From a virus (lineage: Duplodnaviria > Caudoviricetes), in IMG/VR virus record IMGVR_UViG_3300044724_009327, positions 1 to 60,263 of that record: a stretch of DNA of 60,263 bases. One strand, written 5' to 3'. The notes under the pieces were generated by a model that was given only the letters and a program-made list of their open reading frames with translations, was not told the DNA's origin and made no database searches. Below are positions 2 to 48,998 of this stretch, piece after piece (within the stretch, counting starts at the first letter, position 1; every line of letters begins with the position of its first letter). Both the position numbers and the translations under genes were made by a program.

Positions 2-658
2 CTGCTTTGGAGGGGTGATGATGAGGAGGTTGTTTATGAAGCTCTCGTCCAGTTTGAGCAGGAGAGGCTTCAAGGGCGTCGACTTGGCGGTGTCCACCAC
101 CGTTGCCTGGAACGCCTGATTCATTATCACAGTGCCCACGTCTGACTCCACCTCGATCTCCCCCACCACGCACACACGCTCGTTGGCTATGATGGTGCAA
201 CTGGGTAGCAGTATTATGGTGGATGATCCGATCTCGTTCACTGTCATGGAGAAGTCTGTGCCCCTGACCGCTATTGTGGCCGTGGGGGTTGAAATTTTTA
301 TGTTCTGTCGGCTGTTCTTGGCTATCTGTCCTGATGCGTACCTCACGGTGCCGATGCTGGCCTTGAGGCTCAGTGCGCCGGTCTGCGAATTGGGATCATA
401 GATGAACTCGTCTATGACGAGCTTGGAGTTCTCCGTGACATCCACCCTGGTGTCGTCCACGAATATTATGGAGGTCCTGCCCTGCTGGGTCTTCACCGTG
501 TCGTAGCTCTCAATCTCGAGGCCTGTAGTGGAGGTGAGCGTGTCCCCTGACTGTCGCTCGATCACGGTGTCACCAATCTGTTGCTCAACGTCACCGATCC
601 GTGCGGATGCGGTGGCTGAAACAAGGCACCAGAATACTATGAATGTCAACCAACGCAT
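2..658 (-). CDS. FecR-domain secreted protein (partial, runs off left edge; not in ORF track)
   Basis: Manual translation from ATG at 658: MRWLTFIVFWCLVSATASARIGDVEQ...FVDDTRVDVTENSKLVIDEF...ISTPTATIAVRGTDF; signal peptide plus FecR-like TPTA-x3-RGT motif. Confidence 0.8.
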   Translation of the reverse strand, partial: MRWLTFIVFWCLVSATASARIGDVEQQIGDTVIERQSGDTLTSTTGLEIESYDTVKTQQGRTSIIFVDDTRVDVTENSKLVIDEFIYDPNSQTGALSLKASIGTVRYASGQIAKNSRQNIKISTPTATIAVRGTDFSMTVNEIGSSTIILLPSCTIIANERVCVVGEIEVESDVGTVIMNQAFQATVVDTAKSTPLKPLLLKLDESFINNLLIITPPKQ

Positions 659-659
659 G

Positions 660-1343
660 TTAGTCCGTCTGCGTTATGTCTATGGTCGCGTTGTCCCCTG
701 AAGTGGTCACATCAATCTTGTTGTCATAGATACCTGACTGGCTCATGTTGATCACGCCACCGTCTCCGGTGTGGCTGTGAACGAGTGAGTGTCCAGCACT
801 GTCTCCATCGCCCGTCTGCGTGTAGCTCGACGTGTTACCGGTCAGACCCGATGCGTTGGATATGTCGATGTCAGCATCCGCCGCCGCCGCGTTCACTGTC
901 AGTGTGAAAGTCTCTGACGCCGCTGACGTGATGTCTATAGTGCCCACGTAGTCCGAAGCGTCCGCGGTCGAACCAAGGTCCACCGTTATGTCCGCTGAGT
1001 CACCGGTCACGTCTATGCTCATTGATACCGTGTCACAATTTCCTGTGGCACAGTCCAGGTCCACCGTGTTCAGTCCACCCGTCAGGTTGATGTTACCCGT
1101 GTAGGTGGAACCATTGATGGTGGCCTCCACCACGTTGGAATCACCCACCTGGCTGATAGAGAACGTCATGGTGTCACCCGTAAGGCTCATAGCCGTCGTT
1201 GAGTCACCCGCCACGTTGTTCTGACCGTCCTGTGTGATGTCTAGGTCTAGGTTGTCTCCCGACTGCGTCACGTAGATGTCATTGGCCATCACTGGCACCG
1301 ACAGCATGATCCACAGCAGGATCGATTTAATTGTTGTCTTCAT
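660..1343 (-). CDS. Curlin-like beta-solenoid repeat secreted protein
   Basis: Probable start MKTTIK at 1343 with AGGAG SD; signal peptide; repeats IxQxGxxN (VTQSGDN, ITQDGQNN, ISQVGDSN); next to csgG/csgF. Confidence 0.7.
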   Translation of the reverse strand: MKTTIKSILLWIMLSVPVMANDIYVTQSGDNLDLDITQDGQNNVAGDSTTAMSLTGDTMTFSISQVGDSNVVEATINGSTYTGNINLTGGLNTVDLDCATGNCDTVSMSIDVTGDSADITVDLGSTADASDYVGTIDITSAASETFTLTVNAAAADADIDISNASGLTGNTSSYTQTGDGDSAGHSLVHSHTGDGGVINMSQSGIYDNKIDVTTSGDNATIDITQTD

Positions 1344-2166
1344 TATCGCTCTTCTCCTTGTGTATTTGGACAGGTTGCTTGAACTTCCAAAGGCCCTGTC
1401 GCTCACCCTTGATGATCATCTCCACTACTGAAGATTCTATTGCGGCTCTCACCGCGTAATTCACTGGCTCATTCAGGGAGTTGCCTATCTCCGCCTCCTG
1501 GCTCACCGTGCCAAGGTCCACGAACCTGAACAGGTCCGCGCTGGTCCTGTAACTGGCGATCCGCTTCTCCACAGCCACGCTCAGCAACACCTCGCCGGTC
1601 TGCACCGACACTATCCTCATGGCCACCGTGACCTGGTCCACCCTGTACTGCTTGGTCAAACCTATGCCCAGGTACCTGGCCCCAGCACCACCGGTCTCGA
1701 TGTTGCTGTCATAACCGACCACGCCGCCCTCTATGATCAGGCCCGCGAACAGCATGGGTTTCAGGCTGGGTTGCTTGTCTCCGTCGTACACCTCACGTGT
1801 TGACCTTATCAACTGTCGCTCTTTCACTAAATTCTCTAGTCCTATACGTTCCACCACACGGAACCAATTGCCGGCACTGGCACGTTTCAGTGCGTCTATG
1901 ACCCACACCTCTGAACCCTGTGACACCGCACTGCTCAACTGTGAGAAGTTGGCGTTGGGCTTCCTCTGGCCGGTCTTGTCGGCGAAACTGTACACCGCTA
2001 TGGTTATGATGGGGCCGTCCAACGCCGGCAGGTGCTTGAGCTGGTGCTCCATGTGTGATCCCGCGACCATGGGGTCATCCCACTTGATGTTCTTGATCGT
2101 TGACGCACATCCGCTTAAAACCATTGCCATCACTGCCGCGATGGTGATGTAAAAAATTTTCTTCAT
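1327..2166 (-). CDS. csgG: CsgG/HfaB family curli assembly lipoprotein
   Basis: Lipobox LSGC; AVYSFADKTGQRK, WFRVVERIGL, GGVVGYDSN, GGAGARYLGIG motifs. Confidence 0.92.
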   Translation of the reverse strand: MKKIFYITIAAVMAMVLSGCASTIKNIKWDDPMVAGSHMEHQLKHLPALDGPIITIAVYSFADKTGQRKPNANFSQLSSAVSQGSEVWVIDALKRASAGNWFRVVERIGLENLVKERQLIRSTREVYDGDKQPSLKPMLFAGLIIEGGVVGYDSNIETGGAGARYLGIGLTKQYRVDQVTVAMRIVSVQTGEVLLSVAVEKRIASYRTSADLFRFVDLGTVSQEAEIGNSLNEPVNYAVRAAIESSVVEMIIKGERQGLWKFKQPVQIHKEKSDNEDNN

Positions 2167-2610
2167 CTAGAATCCAAATCCCGTTAGTGGGACCGATATG
2201 TCCGTGATCGTGCCGTCCTCCTCGGTCACGGTGATGGTGATCGTGTCCGCCGACGTGTCCTTGACCCAGTATATGGTTGCGCCTTCTATGGATGCCGTGC
2301 CCGACGTTGATCCGTCGTCCGTGAACATGTTGTCCACCAACTGTTTGGAGAGCTGTGCGTAGATCCTGCTTTCCACGTTGTTCAGGAACTTGTTGAGGGT
2401 GGTCTGCTCCAGCTCACGTGCCAGTTTGGCCGCGGCCGCTTCCTTCTTCTCTGTTATCTCCTTCTCCCTCTGGTATCTCAGTTGCTCCATGGCCAGCACG
2501 TGGTTGCTGTATCCGTTGCCCGAGAACGAGGGATTCTTGAACTCGTGCGTGAGCTCGCTGGCCTCCACGGCCGTACAAATTGAAAGTATCAACAATGTCT
2601 GTCTAATCAT
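2167..2610 (-). CDS. csgF: Curli assembly protein CsgF-like
   Basis: Signal peptide followed by ELTHEFKNPSFSGNG; adjacent to csgG. Confidence 0.85.
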   Translation of the reverse strand: MIRQTLLILSICTAVEASELTHEFKNPSFSGNGYSNHVLAMEQLRYQREKEITEKKEAAAAKLARELEQTTLNKFLNNVESRIYAQLSKQLVDNMFTDDGSTSGTASIEGATIYWVKDTSADTITITVTEEDGTITDISVPLTGFGF

Positions 2611-3799: not shown

Positions 3800-6064
3800 T
3801 TATTGTATTGCGATTGACGCCTTCTGTGCTATCTTGCCAGGCTCGTTTTTATTGTAGTAACTAATTTTTCCAGTTGCTAGTTCTTTGTTTGGCCAAAGTA
3901 CATTTGTTGCAAACATACCGTCTTTGCTAATTTGACTCCCTACTTTAATAAAGTTCTGTTGTAACATTTCACGAAACATAGATTCAAGATCTGGCAGTGC
4001 ACCATTGGCGAGACTCATTCTGATCATGTTGTTTAGTGCCCAGTGTATTCTACTGAAGAATGTTTTAGCCTTTGACCCTCTTTTTGAATAGAAATTTTGT
4101 TGTTCTACGTGTTTGAAAAGGGAAATCATTTTTTTATCTTCTTTAGCATTTTCAACTGGAACGACACCAAAAGGTAAGAATGTAAGTAATTTTTTATCTG
4201 AAATAGAATCAGGTGCATGTTTAAAAATAACATCCATTAATGCAAACGGGAAAGTGTATTGTGTGGCTTGTTCATTTGCCTGCATAAACTCTATCTCTTC
4301 TTTGTATTGCGTATTTTTTTTGAACTCATCTGGTATTTTAAATCCGCCCATCGCAGTCGCGGCTCCTTTACCACTTGCTCCACCTTTTGATGATATCATT
4401 ATTTTGAAGCCAGTCTTGGGATTTTTAAATCCTGCAACAGTTCCAACAGAATCGGCTAATGGATTATTTGATTTAGAAGGAAAGAATATGTTTAGTTCAT
4501 TAAATCCTGCTACGTCCAAGTGTTTGTAGAATGGTTCGCTATTTTCAAACTTTGCAAGTCCTTGTACAACCATCAAGACACCCAAATATTCTCCAGCATA
4601 ATCTCTCAAGGCTTCTACACTCTGATTATGTTGACTCAAGTATTTCATATTGATTCTTGAATCACCTTTCAATATTCTTTGTGCCAATTCAAGAGCTTCT
4701 TTTGCCACAGGATCAGAAGTAGCAATAGGGGTTAATGCTTTTATAATGGTTTGTCCTAGTTGACCTGCAGGGATTTCTTTATCTACAATGCCTACGTCAC
4801 TGGGTTTGACCTTGTATGATTCTTTTCCTCTTTCCTTGCCAGAGATAGAAGGAGTTTTTGTTCCTCCATATTTCGGAGTTTTTGCCAAAGGACTCTGTGT
4901 TTTTGTGATCTTGACAATGCCCTTATCGGATTGTAAGGTTAAAAGTTCGGGGGTTTTCTCATCGTTTGTTGCCGCCCAGTTTTTGAATTTTTCTACTTCG
5001 TTTTTATTAATAATTACTTGCTCACCATTACTACCTATGAAAGGTGCTCCTGAGGCTATGTCATTTATAAAAGTTGGAATTCTATCTTTAGGCTTATCTT
5101 TATACTTTAAAAGTTCATATCCTGTTAAAAATGGTCTAGAACCAGACTCTCTCAAGAACCACGGATTCTCGAATGATTCCTTCTTCATGAACCTGTGTAT
5201 CAGGTCCGTGTACAGTCGGTCATGGCTGTCCTGTGATATCTCACCCCGGTCTCGTCTGTTGTGTAGATCTTTCACACCCGTCAGGAAATCCGGATACGAC
5301 TGCACGTTTGGCAGTTCCACCACGTTCTTGACTGGCTCTGGGAACTTGATTATCTCCGCCTCTTCTATTTCCTTTTGGAACCATGGTTGTGCATCCTCCC
5401 TGGTGGCACCTATGGTCAATGCTGGCCTGCTCATCCTCAACTTGTCTCCCGCGTGTATGGTGCTACCCTGGAACTGTAGTGGGTACACCGTGTGTTCGTT
5501 GTCGTCTCGGTACTTGCCCTCCGTGTCCAGCGTGTACCTGCCGTTCATCTTGATGCCTAACTGTGACAGCAACTTGTTGCTGGCGTTGAACATGATCTGT
5601 GGCAGTGCGTCCTCGCTGTCCCTGTTCTTCTTCATCCTGCGATCATATGATCTCACGAAGCCGTCCGCTTCCAGGTCCGCCGCACCGTACACCTCGTTGC
5701 CTATGACCAAGGTTGGTCCGTTCTGGTCCTTGGAGATCTTGGCGTAGATGTTGTTGTACATGGTGGGGTCTTTCAGCAGTTCATCGTTGGATGGCACGTT
5801 CAACAGCACACTGGTCTGTCCCGACGCTGATATCTTGGGTGCGTCCGCCTCCCTCTTGTCTATGGCCTGCTTGGCGGAGTCCAGCGCCTCCTGTTCCGTG
5901 TCACCACCTGTCCTCAACACTTCCTTGCTGGTGGCCGGTGATGTGACGATGGCTATATAGGGTGGTTTGACCTTGGTCTTGCTGACCGATATGTTGAGTC
6001 CCTTGTATGCCACGGGCTCTTTGAATTCTGTTATTGATTGTTCTCGTTCAAACCACGGTTTCAT
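3800..6064 (-). CDS. Large modular hypothetical protein, possibly head-packaged
   Basis: 754-aa ORF, late promoter TAAATA 5 nt before ATG, three PWF-containing segments. Confidence 0.6.
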   Translation of the reverse strand: MKPWFEREQSITEFKEPVAYKGLNISVSKTKVKPPYIAIVTSPATSKEVLRTGGDTEQEALDSAKQAIDKREADAPKISASGQTSVLLNVPSNDELLKDPTMYNNIYAKISKDQNGPTLVIGNEVYGAADLEADGFVRSYDRRMKKNRDSEDALPQIMFNASNKLLSQLGIKMNGRYTLDTEGKYRDDNEHTVYPLQFQGSTIHAGDKLRMSRPALTIGATREDAQPWFQKEIEEAEIIKFPEPVKNVVELPNVQSYPDFLTGVKDLHNRRDRGEISQDSHDRLYTDLIHRFMKKESFENPWFLRESGSRPFLTGYELLKYKDKPKDRIPTFINDIASGAPFIGSNGEQVIINKNEVEKFKNWAATNDEKTPELLTLQSDKGIVKITKTQSPLAKTPKYGGTKTPSISGKERGKESYKVKPSDVGIVDKEIPAGQLGQTIIKALTPIATSDPVAKEALELAQRILKGDSRINMKYLSQHNQSVEALRDYAGEYLGVLMVVQGLAKFENSEPFYKHLDVAGFNELNIFFPSKSNNPLADSVGTVAGFKNPKTGFKIMISSKGGASGKGAATAMGGFKIPDEFKKNTQYKEEIEFMQANEQATQYTFPFALMDVIFKHAPDSISDKKLLTFLPFGVVPVENAKEDKKMISLFKHVEQQNFYSKRGSKAKTFFSRIHWALNNMIRMSLANGALPDLESMFREMLQQNFIKVGSQISKDGMFATNVLWPNKELATGKISYYNKNEPGKIAQKASIAIQ

Positions 6065-7776: not shown

Positions 7777-7871
7777 ATGCAATCACATATTGTGTTAATT
7801 GTTGCTAGGACAAAAACATACGTCATGTATCCTCCCAATGTCCATATTAGTATTTTTTCGAACAGGCCCAT
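7773..7871 (-). CDS. 32-aa membrane peptide (not in ORF track)
   Basis: MGLFEKILIWTLGGYMTYVFVLATINTICDCI; TAATG overlap with thyX stop. Confidence 0.5.
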   Translation of the reverse strand: MGLFEKILIWTLGGYMTYVFVLATINTICDCI

Positions 7872-8497
7872 TACTTCCTCAAATATTTCCAACTTCTTGG
7901 AAACGCCTCATTAGTCAGTCTATCGATCTCGTTGGCCACCTCCTGTGTTTCTCGTTGTGTGTCTGGTTTGCATCTTAGGTTACACACCCTAGCGAATGCG
8001 TACAGTGTGCCTGACCAGTACCATTCAGTCATCATGCTCTGTGGTAAAACCATACGTGCCTGTTCTGGTGCCACACCTTTCTGCAACAGACTGTTGTACA
8101 GTATCAGACAACTTTCCATTGTTGTCTCCATGTTGTGATTGATCGTCTGGTCCAGTTTGACTTCACCATCTGAACCCTGTTTTGAATTCTGTGGCCTGCC
8201 CCTCCATGCGTCTGGTTGGTACAGTTCTGGTGCATAATCCACGTAGCGTCTTGACACCTCGTTCCACACGAGACCCACTTGGTGTTTCACCAGTTGCCTC
8301 GCAACGAATACAGGAGCCTTGATCCTAAACTGTAATGATGCGTGTGCAAATGGTGACCAATGATCGTGTTCAGCAAGATACTTGATCAATTTTTCGTCTG
8401 ATGCTTCAAACGTTTCTTTGTTTTTGCTGTAACTTACCCTTGCCGCATTGACAACGGACAAGTCAGTGCCCATCTTGTCTACTAGTTCTACTTTCAT
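7871..8497 (-). CDS. thyX: Flavin-dependent thymidylate synthase
   Basis: AARVS, HWSPF, ARQLVKHQ...NEVSRRY, EQARMVLP motifs. Confidence 0.95.
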   Translation of the reverse strand: MKVELVDKMGTDLSVVNAARVSYSKNKETFEASDEKLIKYLAEHDHWSPFAHASLQFRIKAPVFVARQLVKHQVGLVWNEVSRRYVDYAPELYQPDAWRGRPQNSKQGSDGEVKLDQTINHNMETTMESCLILYNSLLQKGVAPEQARMVLPQSMMTEWYWSGTLYAFARVCNLRCKPDTQRETQEVANEIDRLTNEAFPRSWKYLRK

Positions 8498-8509
8498 ATG
8501 CTTATTATA

Positions 8510-10117
8510 CTAGAAAGACTTGTTGAATCCTAGTGTAAGTTTCCTACCCTCTTGACTAAAACCATGAGGTGACTCATAGTTCTCATCCAACAAATTAAGC
8601 AGACTTACACCAAATTGGATACCATGGTAATCATAACCAAGATTCAAGTCTAGTAAATGTGTCTCTGGCATGGATATTGTTGACCAATTGGAGTTGTGTA
8701 CATCTAGATGTTTGCCCTTGTACTTGTAATTTGTGGTAAGAGAAAAATTATTTTTGAAGTCCTGGTTGTGCATGAATCCAAGGGTCCAACTGGGTCGTCT
8801 TAATTGTACCACTTCTTTTTTCTTGCTGTTTAAATGACTGGCAAAAACTTTGAAGTCTTTTATGCCATAACTGACTTCTAGCCCATCTGTGTTTAAATCG
8901 CTTATGTCATTTTTGAATATGGTTGTTGAGAAATTATTTTTAGTCAATGTGAGTTCCTGTGACTCACCATATTCTATTGCTGTCCAAGTGGTCTTGTCCT
9001 TGTAACTGGTGGATGTGCTACCGCTGATGCTTAATCCATCTTCCAGTTCTCTAAAGAACCCTAACTTGTAGGTCTCATGTTCTTCGTCAAATCTGTGTTG
9101 ATATGAAAATACATTATAAGATAGATTGTAAAAATATCCTAGGTTGTGGTGTTGTCCGGTCAGTGATTCGTTGTGCTTGTAGTCAAATCCAAATCCAAAC
9201 TTTTCATATTGTTGTGTAGCCCTCATTGTGTAGTTCTCACTCTCGTAGTGGGCGTCATCATAGTCCCTGTCATACTCATGCGTGTGGAAAGTCAAACTAG
9301 AATTTTTATAATCCAATCCTGTCTGTAGAGCATAGAAAGTGTTGTCTGCCCATTTATCATTCTGTATGGCAAGACTGTGACCGTCGATGTCTGAGAATGT
9401 GTTCCTTGCGAACCACGATGTTCTAAAATGCACAAGGTCATACCACTTGCTAACATTTACACCTATCGTCTTGTTGTTGGTACCATCCTTTTCATCAGCA
9501 CCTGACAAGGCAGAAACATTTTCAGATTTGTGTTGCCCCGCTGATACGGATATGTCAAAATCATTCAACCTGGTGTAGTAATTTCCATTGATTGTTTGAT
9601 CATTGCCATTGCCTGCCAAACTTAATTTCTTATCATAGTCGACTGTGGTTCTAAAGTTTATAGCACCGCCGACTGCATCTGCTCCCCAATGTGCACCTGC
9701 CGATCCCTTGTACACATCGACCTGCATGACATTAAACATAAAGTCCTGTCCAACATCATGAGCACCCGTGGGTGTGGAGTAGTCGTTTATAGGTATCCCA
9801 TTCAACAAAACAAGTGTGTGATTTGAATTGGTACCCCTCATGAACACAGAACTCTGTTGTCCTGTTGGTCCAGACTGTGTGATGTCTAATCCCTGTACAT
9901 AGTTCAACACTTTGGGCAGATCTATTAGATTGTGTTTTTGTATTTCTGATTTTGTAATTGTTCGTGTGGGTGTAATCTTGTCACCGAGTGCGTTTGAATT
10001 ATTCGTATATTTTGGATAGATAGTTGTACAAGGGATAGTGTTATCCCACTCGCATTCGTCAGCATATGCCACACCCGTAAACATAAGCAACACGAAAAAC
10101 ATTATATATTTTTTCAT
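8510..10117 (-). CDS. TonB-dependent receptor, BtuB-like (cobalamin)
   Basis: Signal peptide, plug motifs MRGTNSNHTLVLLNG and KGSAGAHWGADAVGGAIN, NLLDENY, C-terminal Phe; upstream cobalamin riboswitch. Confidence 0.85.
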   Translation of the reverse strand: MKKYIMFFVLLMFTGVAYADECEWDNTIPCTTIYPKYTNNSNALGDKITPTRTITKSEIQKHNLIDLPKVLNYVQGLDITQSGPTGQQSSVFMRGTNSNHTLVLLNGIPINDYSTPTGAHDVGQDFMFNVMQVDVYKGSAGAHWGADAVGGAINFRTTVDYDKKLSLAGNGNDQTINGNYYTRLNDFDISVSAGQHKSENVSALSGADEKDGTNNKTIGVNVSKWYDLVHFRTSWFARNTFSDIDGHSLAIQNDKWADNTFYALQTGLDYKNSSLTFHTHEYDRDYDDAHYESENYTMRATQQYEKFGFGFDYKHNESLTGQHHNLGYFYNLSYNVFSYQHRFDEEHETYKLGFFRELEDGLSISGSTSTSYKDKTTWTAIEYGESQELTLTKNNFSTTIFKNDISDLNTDGLEVSYGIKDFKVFASHLNSKKKEVVQLRRPSWTLGFMHNQDFKNNFSLTTNYKYKGKHLDVHNSNWSTISMPETHLLDLNLGYDYHGIQFGVSLLNLLDENYESPHGFSQEGRKLTLGFNKSF

Positions 10118-10159
10118 AACAGTAGCCTTTCATTTACGCCACTGCTAACTTTACATTGT

Positions 10160-10278
10160 AGAACTAGACTTTCCCAGGCCCTCGCTCGACAGCGGACTTA
10201 TACTGGTTGGCACTCCGACTTTACGGTTCCTGGTAGAGCCATGGAATTGCACCTTGATTCCCCAACATGATTCAGTAA
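10160..10278 (-). promoter_or_regulatory. Cobalamin riboswitch (class II / AdoCbl-variant type)
   Basis: Minus strand TACTG..TTGG-GGAA..GGTGCAATTCC (T-loop)..CCAGG..CCGTAAAGTCGG-AGTG-CCAA-C-CAGTA, then hairpin with CCTGG complementary to CCAGG (kissing loop); upstream of BtuB-like gene. Confidence 0.85.
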
Positions 10279-10285
10279 TACTATA

Positions 10286-10314
10286 ATTTTATATTATTTT
10301 CTTGGTATTGTCAA
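10286..10314 (-). promoter_or_regulatory. Sigma70-type promoter for riboswitch-receptor transcript
   Basis: TTGACA-17-TAAAAT. Confidence 0.75.
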
Positions 10315-10320
10315 CTGTGC

Positions 10321-10719
10321 CTACAGTCCCATCAGTTCTCTGATCTCTGGATTGATCATGTCACGACCCCACTGTGGTTGCATTGTGATTTTCACTCTAC
10401 ATTTCAAGTTTGGAATACTTTCTACTTTCTGTTGCACATCTTTTGGTATCATGTCAGCGGCTGGACAGAATGCACTTGTAAGGCTCATCAGCACATGGAC
10501 GAAACCTTCTTCTGTTACCTTGACATCGTATATCAATCCTAGGTTATAGATGTCCACGCTTATCTCAGGATCATAGCACTCTTTTAGTTTCTCAACTATC
10601 CTTGGCATGTACTCCTGCTGTGTTGGTGGATGTTCTTTGATTTCGCTGAGATCTGTGTTCAGTTGTGGATCAACTGTTGCCTTGTCATTTGGAATCCAAC
10701 CTGGAGGGGTTTCGATCAT
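10321..10719 (-). CDS. SufT/DUF59 (MIP18-like) Fe-S assembly protein
   Basis: DPEI-x-VDIYNLGLIY, MSLTSAFCP, PQW motifs. Confidence 0.88.
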   Translation of the reverse strand: MIETPPGWIPNDKATVDPQLNTDLSEIKEHPPTQQEYMPRIVEKLKECYDPEISVDIYNLGLIYDVKVTEEGFVHVLMSLTSAFCPAADMIPKDVQQKVESIPNLKCRVKITMQPQWGRDMINPEIRELMGL

Positions 10720-10754
10720 ATGTTATAATAGCATGATTACCACAACGTGTCAAT

Positions 10755-11258
10755 TTAGTATACCAGAGGTTCCCATTCTTTGTCACCAAAAATCTCTGTT
10801 CTAAATTTATGGTAATCAAACTCTGGGTGTGCTTCGACCAAGGATCTCTGCCATTTGCTTTGCCATTGGTAAATGTTTTCACTGTCAACGTCAACAATAA
10901 ATTTACCATTGAACCCTAGATAGTTGTTATTCAACAGAGTTTCTCCTGAATCTTTTATAAATGGTAAATGATATATTTCATAATTCAAAGACACGTCGTC
11001 GAAACTAATGTTATTAATGGACACACCTTTGTCGTCTAATATTTTTCCATCGTAATTAATTTTCGTATCCCTCTTCATATTCTTTCCGTAGTGTTCTACA
11101 ATCAGTTTGTTCGGTAATTTAAAATCAGCATCCAACTCTAGAGTAATGTCACCCTTTTGGCCAAGTTGCTGATCGTAAAGCACCTCGTCATTTGTGGCTA
11201 CACGTATACAAGGGCCATTGTTGTAGTTTTGAACTGTAAATTGTATTTTAATTTTCAT
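10755..11258 (-). CDS. Hypothetical protein coupled to radical SAM gene
   Basis: Probable start MKIKIQF at 11258, ATGA overlap. Confidence 0.6.
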   Translation of the reverse strand: MKIKIQFTVQNYNNGPCIRVATNDEVLYDQQLGQKGDITLELDADFKLPNKLIVEHYGKNMKRDTKINYDGKILDDKGVSINNISFDDVSLNYEIYHLPFIKDSGETLLNNNYLGFNGKFIVDVDSENIYQWQSKWQRSLVEAHPEFDYHKFRTEIFGDKEWEPLVY

Positions 11259-12748
11259 GAGTACTTTTGATTTTGCACCTCTGAAGTGGTCAGATCTACT
11301 ATTCCTTGTTTTTGTTTTTTCTTGTAAATTTCCCAAAGGAAATGCAATAGTTTTATATTGCCTTCATCGAAGTCTAATTTATATCCCATCTTCCTTAATT
11401 CTTCCCCTGCAATTATTCTTCTCTTGATACGTTCCTGCAGGGTCAATTTTTTGTTATGCTTGTAGGTCCAAAAGTTTTCGCCTCCATGGAGTTTAATATC
11501 CTCTCCATACTGTTCTGCTAGTGGAGTGCCTGGCAGTATGGCGAGTGTTGAACCTAGGGCAACTTCCATTATGATGTTGTGATATTTCTTATATTTTTTA
11601 AACATACGTAAAGTATCCACGAAATCCTCATGCGTTTCGGTCGGATAGCCAACGATCATCAAAAATGTCACACCAACACCATTGGCATGGGCCTGCTCCA
11701 TGAACTCATCCATGTCTTTATTACTAAATTGTTTTTTCATGTGATCTCTCACAGATTCACTACCGGACTCTACTCCTAGCAGTAGATTGGTAGCACCAGA
11801 ATCTCTTGTCATTTTCCAGTCTTCTTCTGTCATAGACTTCAATCCCCTGACAATGAACTGGCCACTCCAGGTGATCCTGTTCTTTGCAGTCGCGTTGTGT
11901 TCTGCCACAGTCTTTACAAAGTCTCTGTATGCTTTCATAGATCCGTTGACAAGACTGTCGGAAAAACGGAAATCGTATTTTTTGTGTTTCTCACTCTGGG
12001 CGAACATCTCTTCTGCTATGCTCTCTCCTGAACGGAACACAAATTTTTTCCAGTGTTTGTGTATATCACAGAAAGAACATTTCCTAACACATCCTCTACT
12101 TCCTGTAATCTTCAAACTGTTGCCTTCGTACTTGTCGAGGTCATAATCAGAATAATCCGGCCATGCTATGTTGTTGAGATCGAGTTGTTGTTCCCAATCA
12201 CTGTTGTCCACTCCAGGGCCTTTGCCTTCCTTGAGTAAATTTACAAGGGCCACTTCACCCTCTGAGATTATGTAATGATCTATGATGTTTGCTTTTTTTA
12301 ACCTTTCCACCCATGGATTTTCTCGTGGGGCGATTCCTTGTGTGATTAATCCTTGTCCACCAAATATAATCTTTACGTCAGGTTTCAACTTCTTAACGTA
12401 TCCTGCGAACATCTCACTGAAGTTCTGACATTGGTACGTGAACACACTGACGGCAATGAACTTGGGATTATACTTTGAGAATAAGTTTTTTGCTGTGTCA
12501 TGCACGTAGTTTTCAACAGTAGAAAAATTGTTCTTATCTTGTATAGTGCCAAACCCGAAGTAATTTTTGCACAGTTCAAATTTCTTTGAATCTGTGTCTT
12601 CTAGTCTGACAAAGTCGTAATTGATGTCGTAGGTGCTACAAGTGAAGTCGTGTTGTTCTACACAGGCTTTTAGAGCCGCCGGTGCCTGTAAAGGTTGTCT
12701 GGTTGCGGTCCATGGTGCAGTTACTATTAGTATATCACAATCTATCAT
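11255..12748 (-). CDS. B12-binding radical SAM enzyme
   Basis: N-terminal B12-binding-like domain (IIFGG, SEGE), SRGCVRKCSFC, GVESGS, IVGYPTET. Confidence 0.88.
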   Translation of the reverse strand: MIDCDILIVTAPWTATRQPLQAPAALKACVEQHDFTCSTYDINYDFVRLEDTDSKKFELCKNYFGFGTIQDKNNFSTVENYVHDTAKNLFSKYNPKFIAVSVFTYQCQNFSEMFAGYVKKLKPDVKIIFGGQGLITQGIAPRENPWVERLKKANIIDHYIISEGEVALVNLLKEGKGPGVDNSDWEQQLDLNNIAWPDYSDYDLDKYEGNSLKITGSRGCVRKCSFCDIHKHWKKFVFRSGESIAEEMFAQSEKHKKYDFRFSDSLVNGSMKAYRDFVKTVAEHNATAKNRITWSGQFIVRGLKSMTEEDWKMTRDSGATNLLLGVESGSESVRDHMKKQFSNKDMDEFMEQAHANGVGVTFLMIVGYPTETHEDFVDTLRMFKKYKKYHNIIMEVALGSTLAILPGTPLAEQYGEDIKLHGGENFWTYKHNKKLTLQERIKRRIIAGEELRKMGYKLDFDEGNIKLLHFLWEIYKKKQKQGIVDLTTSEVQNQKYS

Positions 12749-13146
12749 GCATTGGCAATCCGTATTACCCTTTCAATCAGACTTGCAAAACCTACCTGTC
12801 TTTGCATTGTGAGTAATTCTCTGATTCCTAGTGCTTGGAAATTCTCTAGTGTTAGGTTCGCCACTTCACTTCTGTGTTCTCCATTCACCACATCCAATAT
12901 TACTTTTGCAGTGCCCTTGGTCATGTGCGAGTCAGCATCATGTTGATACTGCATGGTACCATCCTCTTGCACTTTGCCTGTGACCCAAAGGTTAGATATA
13001 CAGCCACGTATTTTGTTTTCTTCTGTCTTGTGTTCTGGTGCTAACGGTTTAACTTGTTGTGCTTCGTCGATTATGTACTGCAATCTTTCCATGCCTTCCA
13101 GCACTGACATGCTTTCGCCCTTGTCTTTGATCTTATCAAGTATCAT
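12745..13146 (-). CDS. sufE: SufE family sulfur acceptor
   Basis: ENKIRGCISNLW, DADS-x3-KG, LT-x-QR-x2-G motifs. Confidence 0.88.
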   Translation of the reverse strand: MILDKIKDKGESMSVLEGMERLQYIIDEAQQVKPLAPEHKTEENKIRGCISNLWVTGKVQEDGTMQYQHDADSHMTKGTAKVILDVVNGEHRSEVANLTLENFQALGIRELLTMQRQVGFASLIERVIRIANA

Positions 13147-14160: not shown

Positions 14161-15168
14161 TTACTGTCTATTGTCATAAAGAAATTTAGATAGAATATCA
14201 TCATTTTCCATGTAAGGCACTAGATTAAAAAGTTTATCACCCATGTCAAACTCGTGGGCGTGTAGATTCTCGGACTCCAACCAGTGTCCTTTTGGTATTC
14301 TACCAACATAGCAAAGTTCGTGTTGTTCCAGGCCAAGTATCCTACACCACTTGTTTTGGTAAGGAACGAACTTGTCTCTGACGTAATGATAACCAAATTC
14401 ATCTATAAATCTTTTTCCTATGTGGTAGATCAGTTTGTTCCCCAAGGGGTATAGTGACTGTTCTTTGCTCACAGGCTTCTTCCAGTAAGCGAACCCGCCC
14501 TTCATACCTGCCATGGGCAACATCTTGGATATGCTGTGTGTGACAACCTCGACACAATCAGTGTGAGCAAGTTTTATAACTTCCTTGGTCAGTGGCAACC
14601 AGATCAAATCCAAAACGACAGGAATGCCCTGTTCCGTGCATCTCGACAGTATGTCATCTATGGATGGGTGGTTCTTGAAGTTTGAATAGAAAGGCACACT
14701 GATGATCAATAGGTCGTCTTTGGATAGGTCATCTATTTTTTCTATTGTCCTTTGTGCAAGTTTTTGATGATACCAATATTCGTTTTCAAACACAACGGGT
14801 GTTCTATATCTGTGCTGTTGCATGAACTCAAGCACCGTGTGTACAGTTGAGGACATCGGTTCACATTCGTACTCATCCCAATGCATACCTATGTCAGGCA
14901 GAGATGAGCCTTGTATCTTTTCTTCGAAGTGATTGTATCCATACATGTCTATCTTTACGGACTTCAGCCAATCTATCACGTTGGGCAAATTCGCCGACCT
15001 TAATCCAAGATGCAGTCCACTGACTCTCTCATGCATGTCAAATGTTGATGAAGATTTGGGTTTCTGATATGACAGTGAACCTCTTTTGTTTTCATCTACC
15101 AGTTCGGCTTTAGCAATTATCCATTTCATTTGTTCGTAATGTCTGCTTACTGAATTATCCATTGACAT
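14161..15168 (-). CDS. Putative PLP-dependent transferase-fold protein
   Basis: PVVLD and HSISKMLPMAGMKGG resemble the class I/II aminotransferase Schiff-base Lys motif. Confidence 0.5.
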   Translation of the reverse strand: MSMDNSVSRHYEQMKWIIAKAELVDENKRGSLSYQKPKSSSTFDMHERVSGLHLGLRSANLPNVIDWLKSVKIDMYGYNHFEEKIQGSSLPDIGMHWDEYECEPMSSTVHTVLEFMQQHRYRTPVVFENEYWYHQKLAQRTIEKIDDLSKDDLLIISVPFYSNFKNHPSIDDILSRCTEQGIPVVLDLIWLPLTKEVIKLAHTDCVEVVTHSISKMLPMAGMKGGFAYWKKPVSKEQSLYPLGNKLIYHIGKRFIDEFGYHYVRDKFVPYQNKWCRILGLEQHELCYVGRIPKGHWLESENLHAHEFDMGDKLFNLVPYMENDDILSKFLYDNRQ

Positions 15169-16288
15169 ACTGTTCTGCTATTTTGTTGAGGTTGTTTAAA
15201 TGATCGCTTTGTTTCCAATGCAGTTTATCAAAAACTCTCTTCCATTCAGGCATCACTTTCGTTATGTCAGTCTTCCAATACTGATCGAGTTGTTTGATAA
15301 AGTTGACTGGATCGTGTGTCGCTTTGGGTTCTATGTACTTTCTGTATTTTTCAGGCACGAGATCGTGCAATTGATATGGCAAATTGTGAGGAGATAGCTC
15401 ACCAGGTTTGTCAATCAATCCCGGTTGTGACCAGAATATCCCATTGTCCTTGCACCACTGCTCCAGTTCTGGCAATCGCAACATTGTCATCACACTTATA
15501 GTGGAGGCCACCTGCAACGATATTCCATTTGTTCTCAGGAGTTTTATGTTTTCTGTTAACTTGTTCCAGTTGCAACCAGGTCGTACGTATTCCTGTACTG
15601 CACCCACGCCGTCTATGCTGATGCTTAGAACAACATCCTTGAACTTTTTAATCATTGCCACAGTGTCTAGGTCTATCCTTGTTGCATTGGTTGTGATGTG
15701 TAAGGTTATGTGTTCGTTGTCACCTGTGCTGATCAACTCTCTTAACAAGTTCTTTGCTTTCTTGTGATAGAATGGCTCACCTCCATTTATATCCACATAA
15801 CTTATGTGTTTCCTGTTCTCGAGTATGTAATCCGGAGTGTTCATCAAAGTGTCCACTTCCATGTTCTGTGTCTTGCCGAGAATATCCCAAACCTTTTTGA
15901 CCTTTGTGCTGAAACTAGGAAGGCACATTCTACAGGCGAGGTTGCATTCTTGGCCAACAGTGTACTTGACCTGTGTGGGCGGAAGTTCCATTTTGGTTTG
16001 TTTGAGTCTTTCTTTGTACTCCTCAAGTCTGCCCTCGTTGATCCGCTGTCTCATACTTGCGATGCCGTTGTCTTCGGCCTTCCAACAAAGTCTACAACCT
16101 TTGGGTCTCTTGCCTGCAAGTAGGTCCTCACGTAGTTTTATGATTTCGTCACTGTTCCAGTAGGAATCTATATCTCTGTGTTCGCCCTCCGGCTCGTAGA
16201 AACAACATGGTGTGAGCGTGGTTCTGCCCACGTGGTTGTTCCTGTTTCTGTCAACGGCGATCCAGGGCATTATGCAAATGTTTTTCAT
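15155..16288 (-). CDS. Radical SAM protein with N-terminal Cys-rich (twitch/SPASM-like) domain
   Basis: CNLACRMC, GGEP; N-terminal C-x-MPW..PCC..CxxC. Confidence 0.88.
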   Translation of the reverse strand: MKNICIMPWIAVDRNRNNHVGRTTLTPCCFYEPEGEHRDIDSYWNSDEIIKLREDLLAGKRPKGCRLCWKAEDNGIASMRQRINEGRLEEYKERLKQTKMELPPTQVKYTVGQECNLACRMCLPSFSTKVKKVWDILGKTQNMEVDTLMNTPDYILENRKHISYVDINGGEPFYHKKAKNLLRELISTGDNEHITLHITTNATRIDLDTVAMIKKFKDVVLSISIDGVGAVQEYVRPGCNWNKLTENIKLLRTNGISLQVASTISVMTMLRLPELEQWCKDNGIFWSQPGLIDKPGELSPHNLPYQLHDLVPEKYRKYIEPKATHDPVNFIKQLDQYWKTDITKVMPEWKRVFDKLHWKQSDHLNNLNKIAEQYVNG

Positions 16289-17243: not shown

Positions 17244-17546
17244 TTACTGCTTCTTGACTTTTATCTGTAGAGGAAAGTTCTCCTGCCTAGCGGCCAACGT
17301 AGCCTCTATGCCTTTCTGCTCTGCAACTTCGTGTGTGTACGAACCAACGATGCCCTGACCATCCTCGTGTATTTTTCTTGTGATGTTCTGTGCTTGTTCT
17401 GGCGTCTTGCCGAATATCTGTTTGAGAACTTTTACAACGAACTCCATGGTGGTGATGTTGTCGTTGAGGAAAATCACGTCGTAGAGTCCAGGCTCGTCCA
17501 ACTTGATCTTTTCTTTGGTAAGTGTTTGTATATCTGTCATTGTCAT
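17244..17546 (-). CDS. clpS: ClpS N-end rule adaptor
   Basis: YDVIFLNDNITTMEFV, IHEDGQG, EVAEQK, FPL. Confidence 0.93.
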   Translation of the reverse strand: MTMTDIQTLTKEKIKLDEPGLYDVIFLNDNITTMEFVVKVLKQIFGKTPEQAQNITRKIHEDGQGIVGSYTHEVAEQKGIEATLAARQENFPLQIKVKKQ

Positions 17547-17551
17547 ACCTT

Positions 17552-17579
17552 ATTATAGCATATCTATATAAGTTGTCAA
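17552..17579 (-). promoter_or_regulatory. Sigma70-type promoter abutting clpS start
   Basis: TTGACA-16-TATAAT with extended -10 TG; ATG 5 nt downstream. Confidence 0.7.
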
Positions 17580-17612
17580 ACATGGAGGGGTGTTTTACCA
17601 CCCCATCCATTT
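17578..17612 (-). terminator. Probable intrinsic terminator after hsp20
   Basis: Hairpin ATGGATGGGGTG/CACCCCTCCAT followed by short T run. Confidence 0.55.
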
Positions 17613-17618
17613 TATGCT

Positions 17619-18068
17619 TTACTTGATCGCGATAGTTTTTGCTTTCTTGTGTTCTGGAATTATTCTTTCCATGCTCACTTTAAGCAAACCATCTTTTAGT
17701 TCTGCACCTTTGACCTCAACATCATTGGCAATAGTAAATGTTCTTGTGAACATCCTCTTTGATATGCCCCTGTGTTGCATTCCGTCGTCGTATTTCTCAA
17801 CTTCGTCTGCTGGATCTTTGTTGGGTTTTGATTTCACAGTGAGTTGATTTTCTTTGTACTCAACTATGATGTCATCCTTACCAAATCCTGCAAGTGCAAG
17901 TTCAACGTCGTATGTGTTATCGCCAGTCTTCACTATGTTGTATGGTGGGAAATTGCCAGTTCCTCTGAAGAAACTGTCGTCCATCATAGCATCAAAGTGA
18001 TCGAACCAGTCGTCGAATCCTACTGTGTATGGTCTTAGGTTATTAAAAATAGATAGATGTTTTGTCAT
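17619..18068 (-). CDS. Small heat shock protein Hsp20 (IbpA-like)
   Basis: FPPYNI, ALAGF, HRGISKR, GAELKDGLL, IAIK. Confidence 0.95.
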   Translation of the reverse strand: MTKHLSIFNNLRPYTVGFDDWFDHFDAMMDDSFFRGTGNFPPYNIVKTGDNTYDVELALAGFGKDDIIVEYKENQLTVKSKPNKDPADEVEKYDDGMQHRGISKRMFTRTFTIANDVEVKGAELKDGLLKVSMERIIPEHKKAKTIAIK

Positions 18069-18127
18069 TGCTTTCCTCCTATGTTAGCAAGGTTAATATA
18101 TGAAGATCCTATCTAAAGCAATCTTCA
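18069..18127 (-). promoter_or_regulatory. ROSE-like RNA thermometer in hsp20 5' UTR
   Basis: CC-UUGCU-AACAU-AGGAGG (U(U/C)GCU opposite SD) preceded by GAAGAU/AUCUUC hairpin. Confidence 0.55.
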
Positions 18128-18186
18128 ACTGTATTTATTATAACATATATGTACTATATGTCAAATTGCGAGTGTGTTTGGTAATA

Positions 18187-18762
18187 TTAGTTTGTAGGCA
18201 CTGGCAGAGGCTCGTCTGTTAGATATTTTGGTATCTTCAGTGGCTCTTTCTTCTTAACTGGTGGATTGTAAACGTCTGCTCCAGGGTTCTTTTCCATGTA
18301 GTCCATCTTCATCTCGTCCCAGGCAGGATCTTCTGACTTAGTCCTCTCCGGTCTCGCCCTCAGTCCCTTGCAGTGTTTCTCCACTGTGCTGAACTGTGGT
18401 GGCAATGGTCTGTCCGCGTACTTCTGGCACACCTTCAACATCTCCAGTTCCTGTCTCAGGTTCTCATTCTCTAGTAACACTTTGTTTTGTTCATCACACA
18501 TCTTTTTGCTCACACCCAGGTACTTCCTGAAACTCAATCTCAGTTCTTTCCGTTCACCAAAATTATCGTAATCATTGCTTGGCGAATAGTGTCTGTAGTC
18601 TGTGTCGTCCTGTGAGTAACTGGTGCTTAGGTCAACAGAACCATACTGACACGCATTTGAGTAACTGTTGAGGTATTCGTTACGTGCTTCGGATTTGGTG
18701 ATCAGTGCGGTCATGAATATCACAAATGCCAAACCGCCTATCCAGATGTATTGTTTTATCAT
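18187..18762 (-). CDS. Secreted or membrane-anchored hypothetical protein
   Basis: Probable start MIKQYIW at 18762; N-terminal hydrophobic segment, four Cys. Confidence 0.6.
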   Translation of the reverse strand: MIKQYIWIGGLAFVIFMTALITKSEARNEYLNSYSNACQYGSVDLSTSYSQDDTDYRHYSPSNDYDNFGERKELRLSFRKYLGVSKKMCDEQNKVLLENENLRQELEMLKVCQKYADRPLPPQFSTVEKHCKGLRARPERTKSEDPAWDEMKMDYMEKNPGADVYNPPVKKKEPLKIPKYLTDEPLPVPTN

Positions 18763-19109
18763 TAGTTTCCGTTGACGTCTCTGTTTAGATCCTTGATGTC
18801 CCAAGCCATGTCACGCACCTTCTCTGCCAGTTCCCTGTAAAGGTTCTCCGCCATCTCCCAGGTCGCTTCCGCCCTGCCCAGACGCTGTTTCAGTTCCGTG
18901 TTGGCTTCCTGCACCACCTTGAGATCCCTCTTCAGGTTGGTGATCTCCACCTCCTGTAGTGCTATGATCTCGTCCTTGTTGCTGTTGATTGTGTCTGTGA
19001 GATTTATCACATACTTGATGCCCGTGAATGTTCCAACCAGTATTGATGCCACTACTGGGATCATCACTATGTTGCTCTTTAACCAACTCTTTTTTTGTTC
19101 TGTTGCCAT
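18762..19109 (-). CDS. Membrane-anchored coiled-coil protein
   Basis: N-terminal TM helix plus heptad-like region; late-type TAAATA upstream. Confidence 0.6.
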   Translation of the reverse strand: MATEQKKSWLKSNIVMIPVVASILVGTFTGIKYVINLTDTINSNKDEIIALQEVEITNLKRDLKVVQEANTELKQRLGRAEATWEMAENLYRELAEKVRDMAWDIKDLNRDVNGN

Positions 19110-19183
19110 TTAAATTCCTGTTTGGATTGCTCTGTAAAGTGCAACTATTTAAATGTTTTTAGTGGGGGGATTATCTGCTACTA

Positions 19184-19477
19184 TTATCTACGGTTTGTAC
19201 GGCCCATGAAGATATTGCCTTCACGATCCCTACGCAGTTTCCTGAGTATCTTTTTACGTTCCTTGGCCTTTTCTCTCTTTATCTCAGACGGCTTTTGGTA
19301 TGTGTTGTTGGCTCTGATCTGATCAATGAACTTGTCTTCCTTTATCCATCTCTTGATCTTACGATATGCCCTCACGGCATCACCACCTGGTGGTACCTCC
19401 ACATAGTAGCCTTGGAAACCTAGAGGTCTATCTGATTTTTTGAACTTGGGTCTAATTTTGTTTTTTTGATATTCCAT
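19184..19477 (-). CDS. rpsU: Ribosomal protein bS21-like
   Basis: V-x-V...RAYRKIKR...YQKPSEIKR followed by basic tail, matching the bS21 pattern. Confidence 0.78.
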   Translation of the reverse strand: MEYQKNKIRPKFKKSDRPLGFQGYYVEVPPGGDAVRAYRKIKRWIKEDKFIDQIRANNTYQKPSEIKREKAKERKKILRKLRRDREGNIFMGRTNRR

Positions 19478-48996: not shown

Positions 48997-48998
48997 AC

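Follow-up and report, generated by a model that had tools for sequence, protein, structure and literature searches.

Why should a virus carry a vitamin-sensing RNA directly ahead of an outer-membrane receptor gene? The question is raised by the IMG/VR virus record IMGVR_UViG_3300044724_009327, analysed here over its whole length of 60,263 bases (hereafter, the window; CheckV completeness 24%). On its minus strand, between positions 10314 and 8510, a putative promoter, a cobalamin riboswitch aptamer and the gene of a 535-amino-acid (aa) protein resembling the cobalamin receptor BtuB follow one another. A preliminary description of this DNA had proposed that the phage senses vitamin B12 and installs its own importer, and this proposal is favoured by the aptamer, the match to BtuB, the linkage to radical S-adenosylmethionine (SAM) genes and the viral contig, all of them read from sequence. 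We consider it probable that the locus is a B12-repressed cobalamin importer cassette of a pelagimyophage-type phage, serving the radical SAM chemistry of that phage. The elements of the cassette are the following.

10286-10314, minus strand: sigma-70-like (early-type) promoter, with TTGACA at 10314-10309, a 17-nucleotide (nt) spacer and TAAAAT ending at 10286; 11 of 12 consensus positions
10200-10278, minus strand: AdoCbl-II (class-II cobalamin) riboswitch aptamer, Rfam RF01689
10229-10233, minus strand: bases CCAGG of loop L5, which form one half of the kissing loop (pairing of alignment columns 51 and 123)
10138-10199, minus strand: 62-nt 3' extension (J1/13 AGUCCGC, P13 with its internal loops, and a strand ending in GGC), common to SAR11 chromosomal leaders
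10157-10191, minus strand: P13 hairpin, from the RNAalifold consensus and pair counts
10177-10170, minus strand: loop L13 (CUGGGAAA), the other side of the kissing loop, with CCUGG at 10178-10174
10118-10146, minus strand: predicted Shine-Dalgarno/AUG helix, in which AGCAGUGGC (10146-10138) pairs with GGCUACUGUU (10127-10118) in the minimum-free-energy (MFE) and centroid folds
8510-10117, minus strand: 535-aa BtuB-like TonB-dependent-receptor-type protein (P0001), ATG at 10117, identified by Plug, NCBIfam, PDB and fold matches

The compact class-II cobalamin aptamer named in the preliminary description was recovered by the Rfam scan proposed there: RF01689 matched over its full length (model positions 1-81 of 81, 79 nt) and scored 81.1 bits (gathering score 36.5, E 8.6e-19), leaving a spacer of 82 nt between the end of the aptamer and the ATG at 10117. 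Judged by its sequence, it is a genuine class-II cobalamin aptamer, and by analogy with the env8HyCbl riboswitch its ligand would be hydroxo- or methyl-cobalamin. The promoter of the same description was also found, as TTGACA-17-TAAAAT at 10314-10286; its first base and the end of the receptor frame coincide exactly with the limits 10314 and 8510 given there. Taken alone, this single site is weak evidence, because the 2.5 kb between 8300 and 10800 contain 13 promoter-like sites against 7.3 +/- 2.6 in shuffled sequences; a GTTGAC(A/T), 17-nt, TAAAAT pair stands ahead of all 13 leaders examined of the window's design (type A, see below).

The kissing loop was assayed in an alignment of 31 leaders (13 phage, 18 cellular) with RNAalifold, the loop-loop contact being added as a pseudoknot. 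RNAalifold predicted the aptamer helices and P13, and helices 1, 2, 3 and 5 of the aptamer each hold pairs changed on both sides, with 96.8-100% of their cells paired. Overall, 98.7% of the paired cells can pair, compared to 88.6 +/- 0.7% in shuffles; the nine pairs changed on both sides were reached by none of 500 shuffles, and slid controls brought pairing down to 28-49%. Specifically, the complementary CCAGG and CCTGG loops of the preliminary description are present within the coordinates it had stated, and the central pair of the contact (columns 51-123) covaries: it is U-A in 17 leaders, A-U in 13 (all the phage leaders) and C-G in one, and it is unpaired in none. A break was observed in one leader, the phage-type L195, at pair 49-125. 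The P13 stem adds seven pairs with changes on one side.

Downstream of the aptamer, the 62-nt extension of the window is 72-87% identical (mean 80%) to those of the 18 cellular leaders, compared to 63-81% (mean 75%) for the aptamer core. This stretch, which lies outside the Rfam model, is thus more conserved between phage and SAR11 than the core itself, and its AGUCCGC linker is invariant. Since the encoded proteins are ~33% identical, such a degree of identity is the pattern expected of a working element.

The extension leads into the predicted Shine-Dalgarno helix, which covers part of the AAAGG at 10130-10126 and abuts the AUG. By eye, type-A variants of this helix carry exclusively changes that preserve pairing (G-U to A-U or G-C), and the equivalent SAR11 helix has other, still complementary, sequences (GUGGC/GCCAC, AACGGC/GCCGUU, AUUAGC/GCUAAU). 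By analogy with the riboswitch class, the window leader would be an OFF switch. Two of its features would suit as well a leader that is a relic or that follows another logic, being an ON switch, acting on transcription or RNA decay, or sensing the B12 status of the host for the timing of infection: L13 lies 60 nt from the AUG and therefore is not the ribosome-binding site, and single-sequence folding predicts the Shine-Dalgarno helix whether the aptamer fold is present or not. Inspection by eye of the phage and host leaders found no conserved anti-sequester pairing linking P13 to that helix. Folded as a single sequence, the whole leader gave a z-score of -1.02, with the aptamer misfolded in the MFE structure. 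A leader mini-open reading frame (AUG to stop, 10156-10151) was dropped as a candidate, as it is not conserved.

RNA libraries were also inspected. A 169-nt contig from a metatranscriptome library is identical over 9081-9214, and a second RNA run yielded contigs less than 90% alike, host-type leaders among them. These are assembled contigs for which DNA carry-over is possible, and therefore they are no evidence for or against transcription.

How general is this arrangement? Pattern scans retrieved the receptor in 36 IMG/VR loci and 80 metagenome loci, and in 22 of the 36 viral loci (14/14, 6/14 and 2/8 in three batches) Rfam placed RF01689 a short distance ahead of the gene. An nhmmer profile built from 17 aptamers found the same 22 viral loci, together with 21 of 27 cellular loci and 44 of the 80 metagenome loci, the latter being in part the same contigs as the viral ones under other names. 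Two leader designs emerged. Type A, the design of the window, was found in one viral and 13 metagenome loci; in it, aptamer and start codon are separated by 82-84 nt. Type B, a short leader of 21 viral and 31 metagenome loci, has 21-29 nt from the nhmmer aptamer match to the start codon; its L5 is ACUUG, the loop of its downstream hairpin (CAAGGAG) is the Shine-Dalgarno sequence, and the CUUG of L5 is complementary to the CAAG at the AAGGAG Shine-Dalgarno. The leader type does not follow the protein tree, and hence we conclude that the leader was exchanged or lost repeatedly: locus L122, whose protein is 92% identical to that of the window, has a type-B leader, and L121 (89%) and L126 (86%) have no aptamer despite 1.8-2.2 kb of upstream sequence. 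A single 46,388-base metagenome contig (L180 and L186) carries a pair of receptor genes, which share 70% and 62% identity with that of the window and each follow a type-B aptamer.

This exchangeability could likewise be taken as a sign of a relic or of a different regulatory logic. Against such an interpretation, which we regard as unlikely, stand the conservation and covariation of aptamer, P13 and kissing loop, the canonical design of the type-B leaders, and the fact that known members of the class repress translation through the kissing loop, as described in PMC5028336. We therefore retain B12-dependent repression as the probable function of the leader.

What does the leader control? The receptor is indeed short for a TonB-dependent receptor, as had been noted beforehand: the frame at 8510-10117 carries the Plug domain (PF07715, residues 50-152, 69.6 bits against a cut-off of 23.9) as its sole Pfam match, and the protein falls ~60 aa short of E. 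coli BtuB, whose chains measure 594 aa. In the alignment with longer relatives, ~nine deletions, amounting to ~80 residues, fall in the barrel half and account for both the short length and the missing match to the barrel family PF00593. A signal peptide-like start (residues ~1-19) is followed by a Cys22-x-Trp24...Pro29-Cys30 motif that is invariant, and the C-terminal residue is Phe in at least 90% of 17 sequences. The preliminary description had seen no obvious TonB box; this is partly right, and has to be qualified by a conserved P-C-[VTL]-x-I segment (residues ~29-34), to which DTLVVTA, the TonB box of Salmonella BtuB, corresponds in the alignment.

Three comparisons give BtuB as the best match, and the clustering with non-B12 transporters considered in the preliminary description was not observed. 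The top two NCBIfam families are the BtuB equivalogs NF007926 and TIGR01779 (2e-27 and 9.6e-26), the next family following at 1.1e-14. A PDB search with a 17-member profile returned E. coli BtuB over profile positions 43-531 (E 3.6e-32), and Cir, the next protein, over the plug alone (3.4e-16). With the AlphaFold2 model, Foldseek ranks 1 to 11 were all E. coli BtuB (TM 0.70-0.78, with 18-20% identity in the structure alignments). DSSP assigned 24 strand segments after the plug, which we interpret as a predicted 22-stranded barrel after merging segments 458-473 and 480-497. In the same interpretation of a model of moderate confidence, the outer loops L4, L5, L6 and L8 appear to be only 2-4 residues long. 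Loops of this kind would fit a protein that is not a cobalamin importer and serves instead to block superinfection, by replacing or masking a receptor of the host, as a decoy or exit pore, or for the import of another substrate, corrinoid-like or unrelated, the riboswitch timing or tuning its expression. This, however, would leave unexplained why BtuB is the best match by both profile and fold.

The family was then delimited. A word-based protein search gave 837 proteins at E <= 0.001 among 6,415 candidates; among the best 120 of these 837, full-length relatives down to ~47% identity measure 517-569 aa, and four proteins of 604-611 aa with 42-44% identity do have PF00593. These nearest long forms (P0118-P0121) were not found in the viral contigs searched. 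A quick maximum-likelihood tree built from 42 proteins unites the short forms in one clade (SH-like approximate likelihood-ratio test, SH-aLRT, 99), sister to three of the 604-611-aa proteins; short and 604-611-aa forms together are sister to the cellular clade (SH-aLRT 97), and Salmonella BtuB is a long outgroup branch. Against 50,697 phage records, tblastn yielded 10 partial matches to the plug (<=29% of the query) and none at 80% coverage, so that the receptor family is present in no deposited phage genome of that collection.

Among species-representative genomes, the best whole-protein matches are 30-35% identical (loci L038-L064), 24 of the 27 being titled Pelagibacter or Pelagibacteraceae, and no full-length match exceeds 35%. 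The sole closer match in a genome is L062, a cut 2.9-kb contig of a metagenome-assembled genome (MAG), with 71% identity over residues 21-158. The SAR11 chromosomes hold a homologous cassette. In Pelagibacteraceae, RF01689 precedes the receptor gene in 9 of 13 loci scanned (80-99 bits); the receptor homologues measure 615-628 aa, and the cassette lies among glycosyltransferase genes, next to rRNA genes and beside a B12-binding radical SAM gene, whose Pfam B12-binding match is above threshold in L040 (43.3 bits) and just below it in L055 (30.2). The SAR11 receptor gene is followed by one for a DUF6580 polytopic membrane protein of 161-176 aa (L040:6873-7403, with equivalents in L038, L047, L055 and L060). 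Its position alone suggests, speculatively, a BtuM-like candidate for an inner-membrane cobalamin carrier; phmmer found no relevant PDB match for it.

Three binned loci deserve a remark on their labels. L042, binned as Acidimicrobiaceae, has a receptor near-identical to that of the SAR11 locus L041; L039, binned as Flavobacteriaceae, nests inside the Pelagibacteraceae clade; and L062, of a 'Flavobacterium' MAG, carries a short-form gene with a type-B aptamer. All three look misbinned.

Which process would need the cofactor? The genes around the receptor suggest an answer.

7871-8497, minus strand: ThyX, directly downstream of the receptor gene, from family scans; 68% DNA identity to phage Mosig
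10321-10719, minus strand: SufT-like iron-sulfur (Fe-S) assembly protein (FeS_assembly_P), Pfam and NCBIfam
10755-11336, minus strand: open reading frame (ORF) between the SufT-like and B12-type radical SAM genes
11255-12748, minus strand: class-B-like (B12-binding type) radical SAM protein, Radical_SAM 63.1 bits
12745-13146, minus strand: SufE, Pfam 100.7 bits
13803-14126, minus strand: ferredoxin (Fer4 and DUF3470), from a family scan
14161-15168, minus strand: ORF between ferredoxin and the second radical SAM gene
15155-16288, minus strand: second radical SAM protein, 60.6 bits

Read along the minus strand, the order is radical SAM, ORF, ferredoxin, SufE, B12-type radical SAM, ORF, SufT-like protein, promoter and riboswitch, receptor, ThyX. 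The best NCBIfam matches of the radical SAM protein at 11255-12748 are B12-binding radical SAM families (residues 83-385), all below cut-off. Across the loci, the nearest NCBIfam families of the radical SAM neighbours are PhpK-type, rSAM_ladder_B12 and others, always below cut-off, and a PDB search with these neighbours returned radical SAM cores, with nothing informative on B12. The linkage itself is observed in 27 of the 36 viral loci, where a homologue of the B12-type radical SAM protein of the window, of L020 or of SAR11 is encoded within the fetched locus; usually the two genes are convergent, with the radical SAM gene 6-45 nt away from the end of the receptor gene. In six of the other nine loci, less than 30 nt of downstream sequence is available. 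Upstream of the receptor gene, other viral loci have genes for tail-fibre assembly, tail fibres and glycosyltransferases, a region of host-recognition type that would suit a receptor with a role other than cobalamin import; that role, in turn, does not explain the radical SAM linkage common to the viral loci and SAR11.

Taken together, these data favour the following scheme. Host RNA polymerase would start at the early-type sigma-70 promoter and transcribe a leader with the class-II cobalamin aptamer. When cobalamin is bound, L5 (CCAG) would kiss L13 (CUGG) of the P13 hairpin, the Shine-Dalgarno and AUG would stay locked in the adjacent helix, and the receptor would not be translated. In an infected cell short of cobalamin, the 535-aa protein would be made, exported via Sec by means of its signal peptide and inserted in the host outer membrane, as its C-terminal Phe suggests, where it would act as an energised BtuB-type cobalamin gate with pruned surface loops. 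The imported cofactor would then serve one or more B12-type radical SAM enzymes of the phage, with SufE, the SufT-like protein and ferredoxin as probable helpers.

Several observations weigh against this scheme. The receptor misses the curated cut-offs of both BtuB families, and widely (96 vs 836 and 90.5 vs 599.7 bits), Pfam did not detect the barrel family PF00593 in it, and its AlphaFold2 model, built on a 17-row alignment, is of moderate confidence (pLDDT, the predicted local distance difference test, 68.7; predicted TM-score, pTM, 0.70). The B12-binding domain of the radical SAM neighbour at 11255-12748 scores 23 bits against a Pfam cut-off of 32.1. As regards the leader, 14 of the 36 viral loci lack a riboswitch, the Shine-Dalgarno helix forms irrespective of the aptamer fold, and most of the changes affecting both sides of a pair separate phage from host as groups, so that the independent covariation events are few. 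Searches for transport partners belong to the same list. Neither TonB_C nor ExbB gave a family match in the window and five related viral fragments, and neither TonB_C nor TonB_2 gave one in five SAR11 single-cell genomes (G001-G005), which are incomplete but do encode a TonB-dependent-receptor-type protein; the sensitivity of the TonB search was low, TonB_C being found in 3-7 of 14 control genomes and TonB_2 in none. Four of the five single-cell genomes have one MotA/ExbB/TolQ-type gene. Neither an inner-membrane cobalamin carrier nor a DUF6580 protein was found in the window, by a search that was positive in no control genome and hence says little.

The missed BtuB thresholds, the lack of a TonB in the phage and host searches and the 14 loci with no B12 sensor would all fit a receptor with another function. 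Yet a cobalamin-specific sensor, kept with compensatory changes in two leader designs, would then have no explanation, and, on balance, we attribute a low probability to a non-importing receptor. The interpretation of the locus as a B12-repressed importer is thus maintained.

Is the carrier of this cassette a virus? The window also contains the following features.

2-2610, minus strand: FecR-like protein, curlin-repeat-like ORF, CsgG and CsgF in a row, a partial curli/type VIII secretion system (T8SS) module known from pelagimyophages
17244-20699, minus strand: clustered ClpS, Hsp20 and ClpX homologues, from family scans
32317-33651, minus strand: TctA-family (tripartite tricarboxylate transporter) membrane protein, 221 bits
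37294-37657, plus strand: two-piece (permuted, alpha-type) transfer-messenger RNA (tmRNA) gene, Rfam; tag peptide ANKKALGFADLTVGMSELRLAA
44372-45973: Mtd_N/pectate-lyase tail-fibre-type gene, adjoining the three radical SAM ORFs of the next line
46792-50297, plus strand: a run of three radical SAM ORFs, with SPASM domains in the first and second, and in the third a weak, sub-threshold Radical_SAM match (24 vs 29.5 bits)

Family scans identified CsgG, CsgF, a FecR-like protein, ThyX, both ribonucleotide reductase subunits and ClpX/ClpS in the window, along with a tail-fibre-type protein with an Mtd_N domain and several radical SAM/SPASM proteins. A DUF6267 protein shares 42% identity along its whole sequence with that of Pelagibacter phage HTVC008M, and its remaining matches are T4-like cyanophages (465 records). 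For the stretch 7800-12800, deposited phages offer a single DNA match covering more than a few per cent of the query, namely thyX of Pelagibacter phage Mosig (68% DNA identity). The literature describes curli pore genes and a two-piece tmRNA as traits of pelagimyophages and of the related methylophage Melnitz (PMC9004378), and the curli/T8SS module has been the object of a speculation about cofactor import, cobalamin being one example (PMC9599517). In agreement with all this, the window is, on sequence grounds, a fragment of a pelagimyophage-type T4-like marine phage, with SAR11 as the most likely host. Related viral loci L034 and L035 likewise have a two-piece tmRNA. The ORF at 3800-6064 (754 aa) has no Pfam, PHROG or phage match.

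The opposite view would be that the cassette is cellular, belonging to a SAR11-type genomic island or to chimeric assemblies misclassed as virus. The homologous riboswitch-receptor-radical SAM cassette of SAR11 chromosomes, in its glycosyltransferase-rich island near rRNA genes, would agree with it, as would the cell-like genes of the window (TctA, ClpX/ClpS, Hsp20, Suf genes, FecR), the low completeness, and the fact that no capsid, terminase or tail-sheath gene was found among the window ORFs scanned. It is nevertheless very improbable, given that the short forms are one clade set apart from cellular proteins to which they are 30-35% identical, that the sole closer genome match is the cut MAG contig L062, and that 36 IMG/VR contigs carry the gene, with tail-fibre, T4-type primase, ribonucleotide reductase and DNA ligase genes as neighbours. 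In addition, the DUF6267 protein and thyX match Pelagibacter phages best, and CsgG/CsgF and the two-piece tmRNA are traits of that phage group (PMC9004378).

A phage-borne cassette may be part of something larger. As a tentative model, which we put forward with clear reserve, pelagimyophage-type phages would carry a self-contained cofactor-supply module, composed of a riboswitch-gated, loop-pruned BtuB, Fe-S helpers and ferredoxin, for B12-dependent radical SAM chemistry, probably the remodelling of host surface glycans. The trimmed loops could let the cell gain B12 uptake while giving rival phages no landing site, and the receptor would function in a host lineage that yielded no canonical TonB in the searches. 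The sensor RNA would have moved between SAR11 and phages and been swapped among phage lineages, and could therefore double as a marker of host linkage. Were this so, the environmental AdoCbl-II family, originally given as 'Marine', may in part be viral.

An importer of this kind would show a phage bringing both a vitamin importer and its feedback sensor, and would connect the infection of the most abundant bacteria in the ocean by viruses with B12, a vitamin that is scarce and ecologically limiting. It also raises the question of how the gate is energised where TonB searches came up empty. The receptor offers a naturally minimised BtuB scaffold, and the leaders provide two natural expression platforms on one aptamer class, useful to studies of riboswitch mechanism. 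Within the literature searched, it would be the first viral cobalamin riboswitch and the first viral cobalamin gate of TonB-dependent-receptor type: the listings and passages searched, supplementary tables being outside their scope, describe neither a phage-borne cobalamin riboswitch nor a BtuB encoded by a phage. In the available text of a pelagimyophage survey, TonB, cobalamin and B12 are unmentioned, and Riboswitch Scanner found no riboswitch (PMC7029224). The cobalamin riboswitch upstream of btuB described in PMC9004378 belongs to the OM43 host and not to phage Melnitz.

How does the cassette compare with known systems? Riboswitches that sense metabolites, or candidate RNAs of this type, have precedents in phages of streamlined marine hosts, namely the glutamine riboswitch of the marine T4-like phages Melnitz and Mosig (PMC9004378) and the manA/wcaG motifs of cyanophages (PMC2864571). 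The statement of the preliminary description that such control of a phage gene is unusual is therefore fair, with these precedents in marine T4-like phages as its limit. In the window, by contrast, the ligand is presumably cobalamin and the regulated gene encodes an outer-membrane receptor; no glutamine riboswitch was found in it at the Rfam gathering score, unlike in Melnitz and Mosig. Phages that supply a host-type uptake component during infection are also known, through the PstS of cyanophages and pelagimyophages (PMC12379486). PstS, however, is a periplasmic binding protein joining a host ATP-binding cassette transporter, whereas the protein of the window is an outer-membrane-type barrel with a cis-acting sensor.

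As for the RNA, the window shares with env8HyCbl and the AdoCbl-variant family (RF01689) the aptamer and the L5-L13 kissing loop as presumed regulatory contact. In env8HyCbl, the ribosome-binding site lies in L13 and the kissing loop depends strictly on cobalamin (PMC5028336), and the phage type-B leaders resemble this arrangement in placing the Shine-Dalgarno in L13. The leader of the window differs in the distance of L13 from the AUG, in its 62-nt extension with a separate Shine-Dalgarno/AUG helix, and in its viral carrier. The AdoCbl-variant was listed simply as 'Marine' by Weinberg et al. (PMC2864571).

With the btuB genes of E. coli and Salmonella, the cassette has in common a cobalamin riboswitch directly ahead of the gene of an outer-membrane cobalamin transporter, putative in the phage, as annotated in the Salmonella record, and a receptor with a TonB-box-like segment, a plug and a C-terminal aromatic residue. 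The Salmonella leader differs in that its adenosylcobalamin-binding riboswitch is annotated at 194 nt, compared to the 79 nt of the window, and the phage receptor departs from BtuB by its low identity (18-20%), its shorter barrel with ~nine deletions, its Cys-x-Trp...Pro-Cys motif and its scores below cut-off.

The closest relative is the SAR11 cassette, which shows the same leader architecture, N-terminal motif and linkage to B12-type radical SAM and glycosyltransferase genes. The host receptor is 80-90 aa longer, 30-35% identical and in a separate clade, the central kissing-loop pair is flipped (U-A in the host, A-U in the phage), and the DUF6580 gene that follows the host receptor was not found in the window by a low-information search. 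The B12 regulation of SAR11 btuB was stated to be unknown by Wienhausen et al. (PMC9296465), and SAR11 leaders with the same aptamer bear on that question. In conclusion, riboswitch-controlled btuB is a known kind of system; what is new here is its viral carrier, a loop-pruned clade of receptors, and the fact that two expression platforms coexist and have been exchanged, one of which is common to the presumed host.

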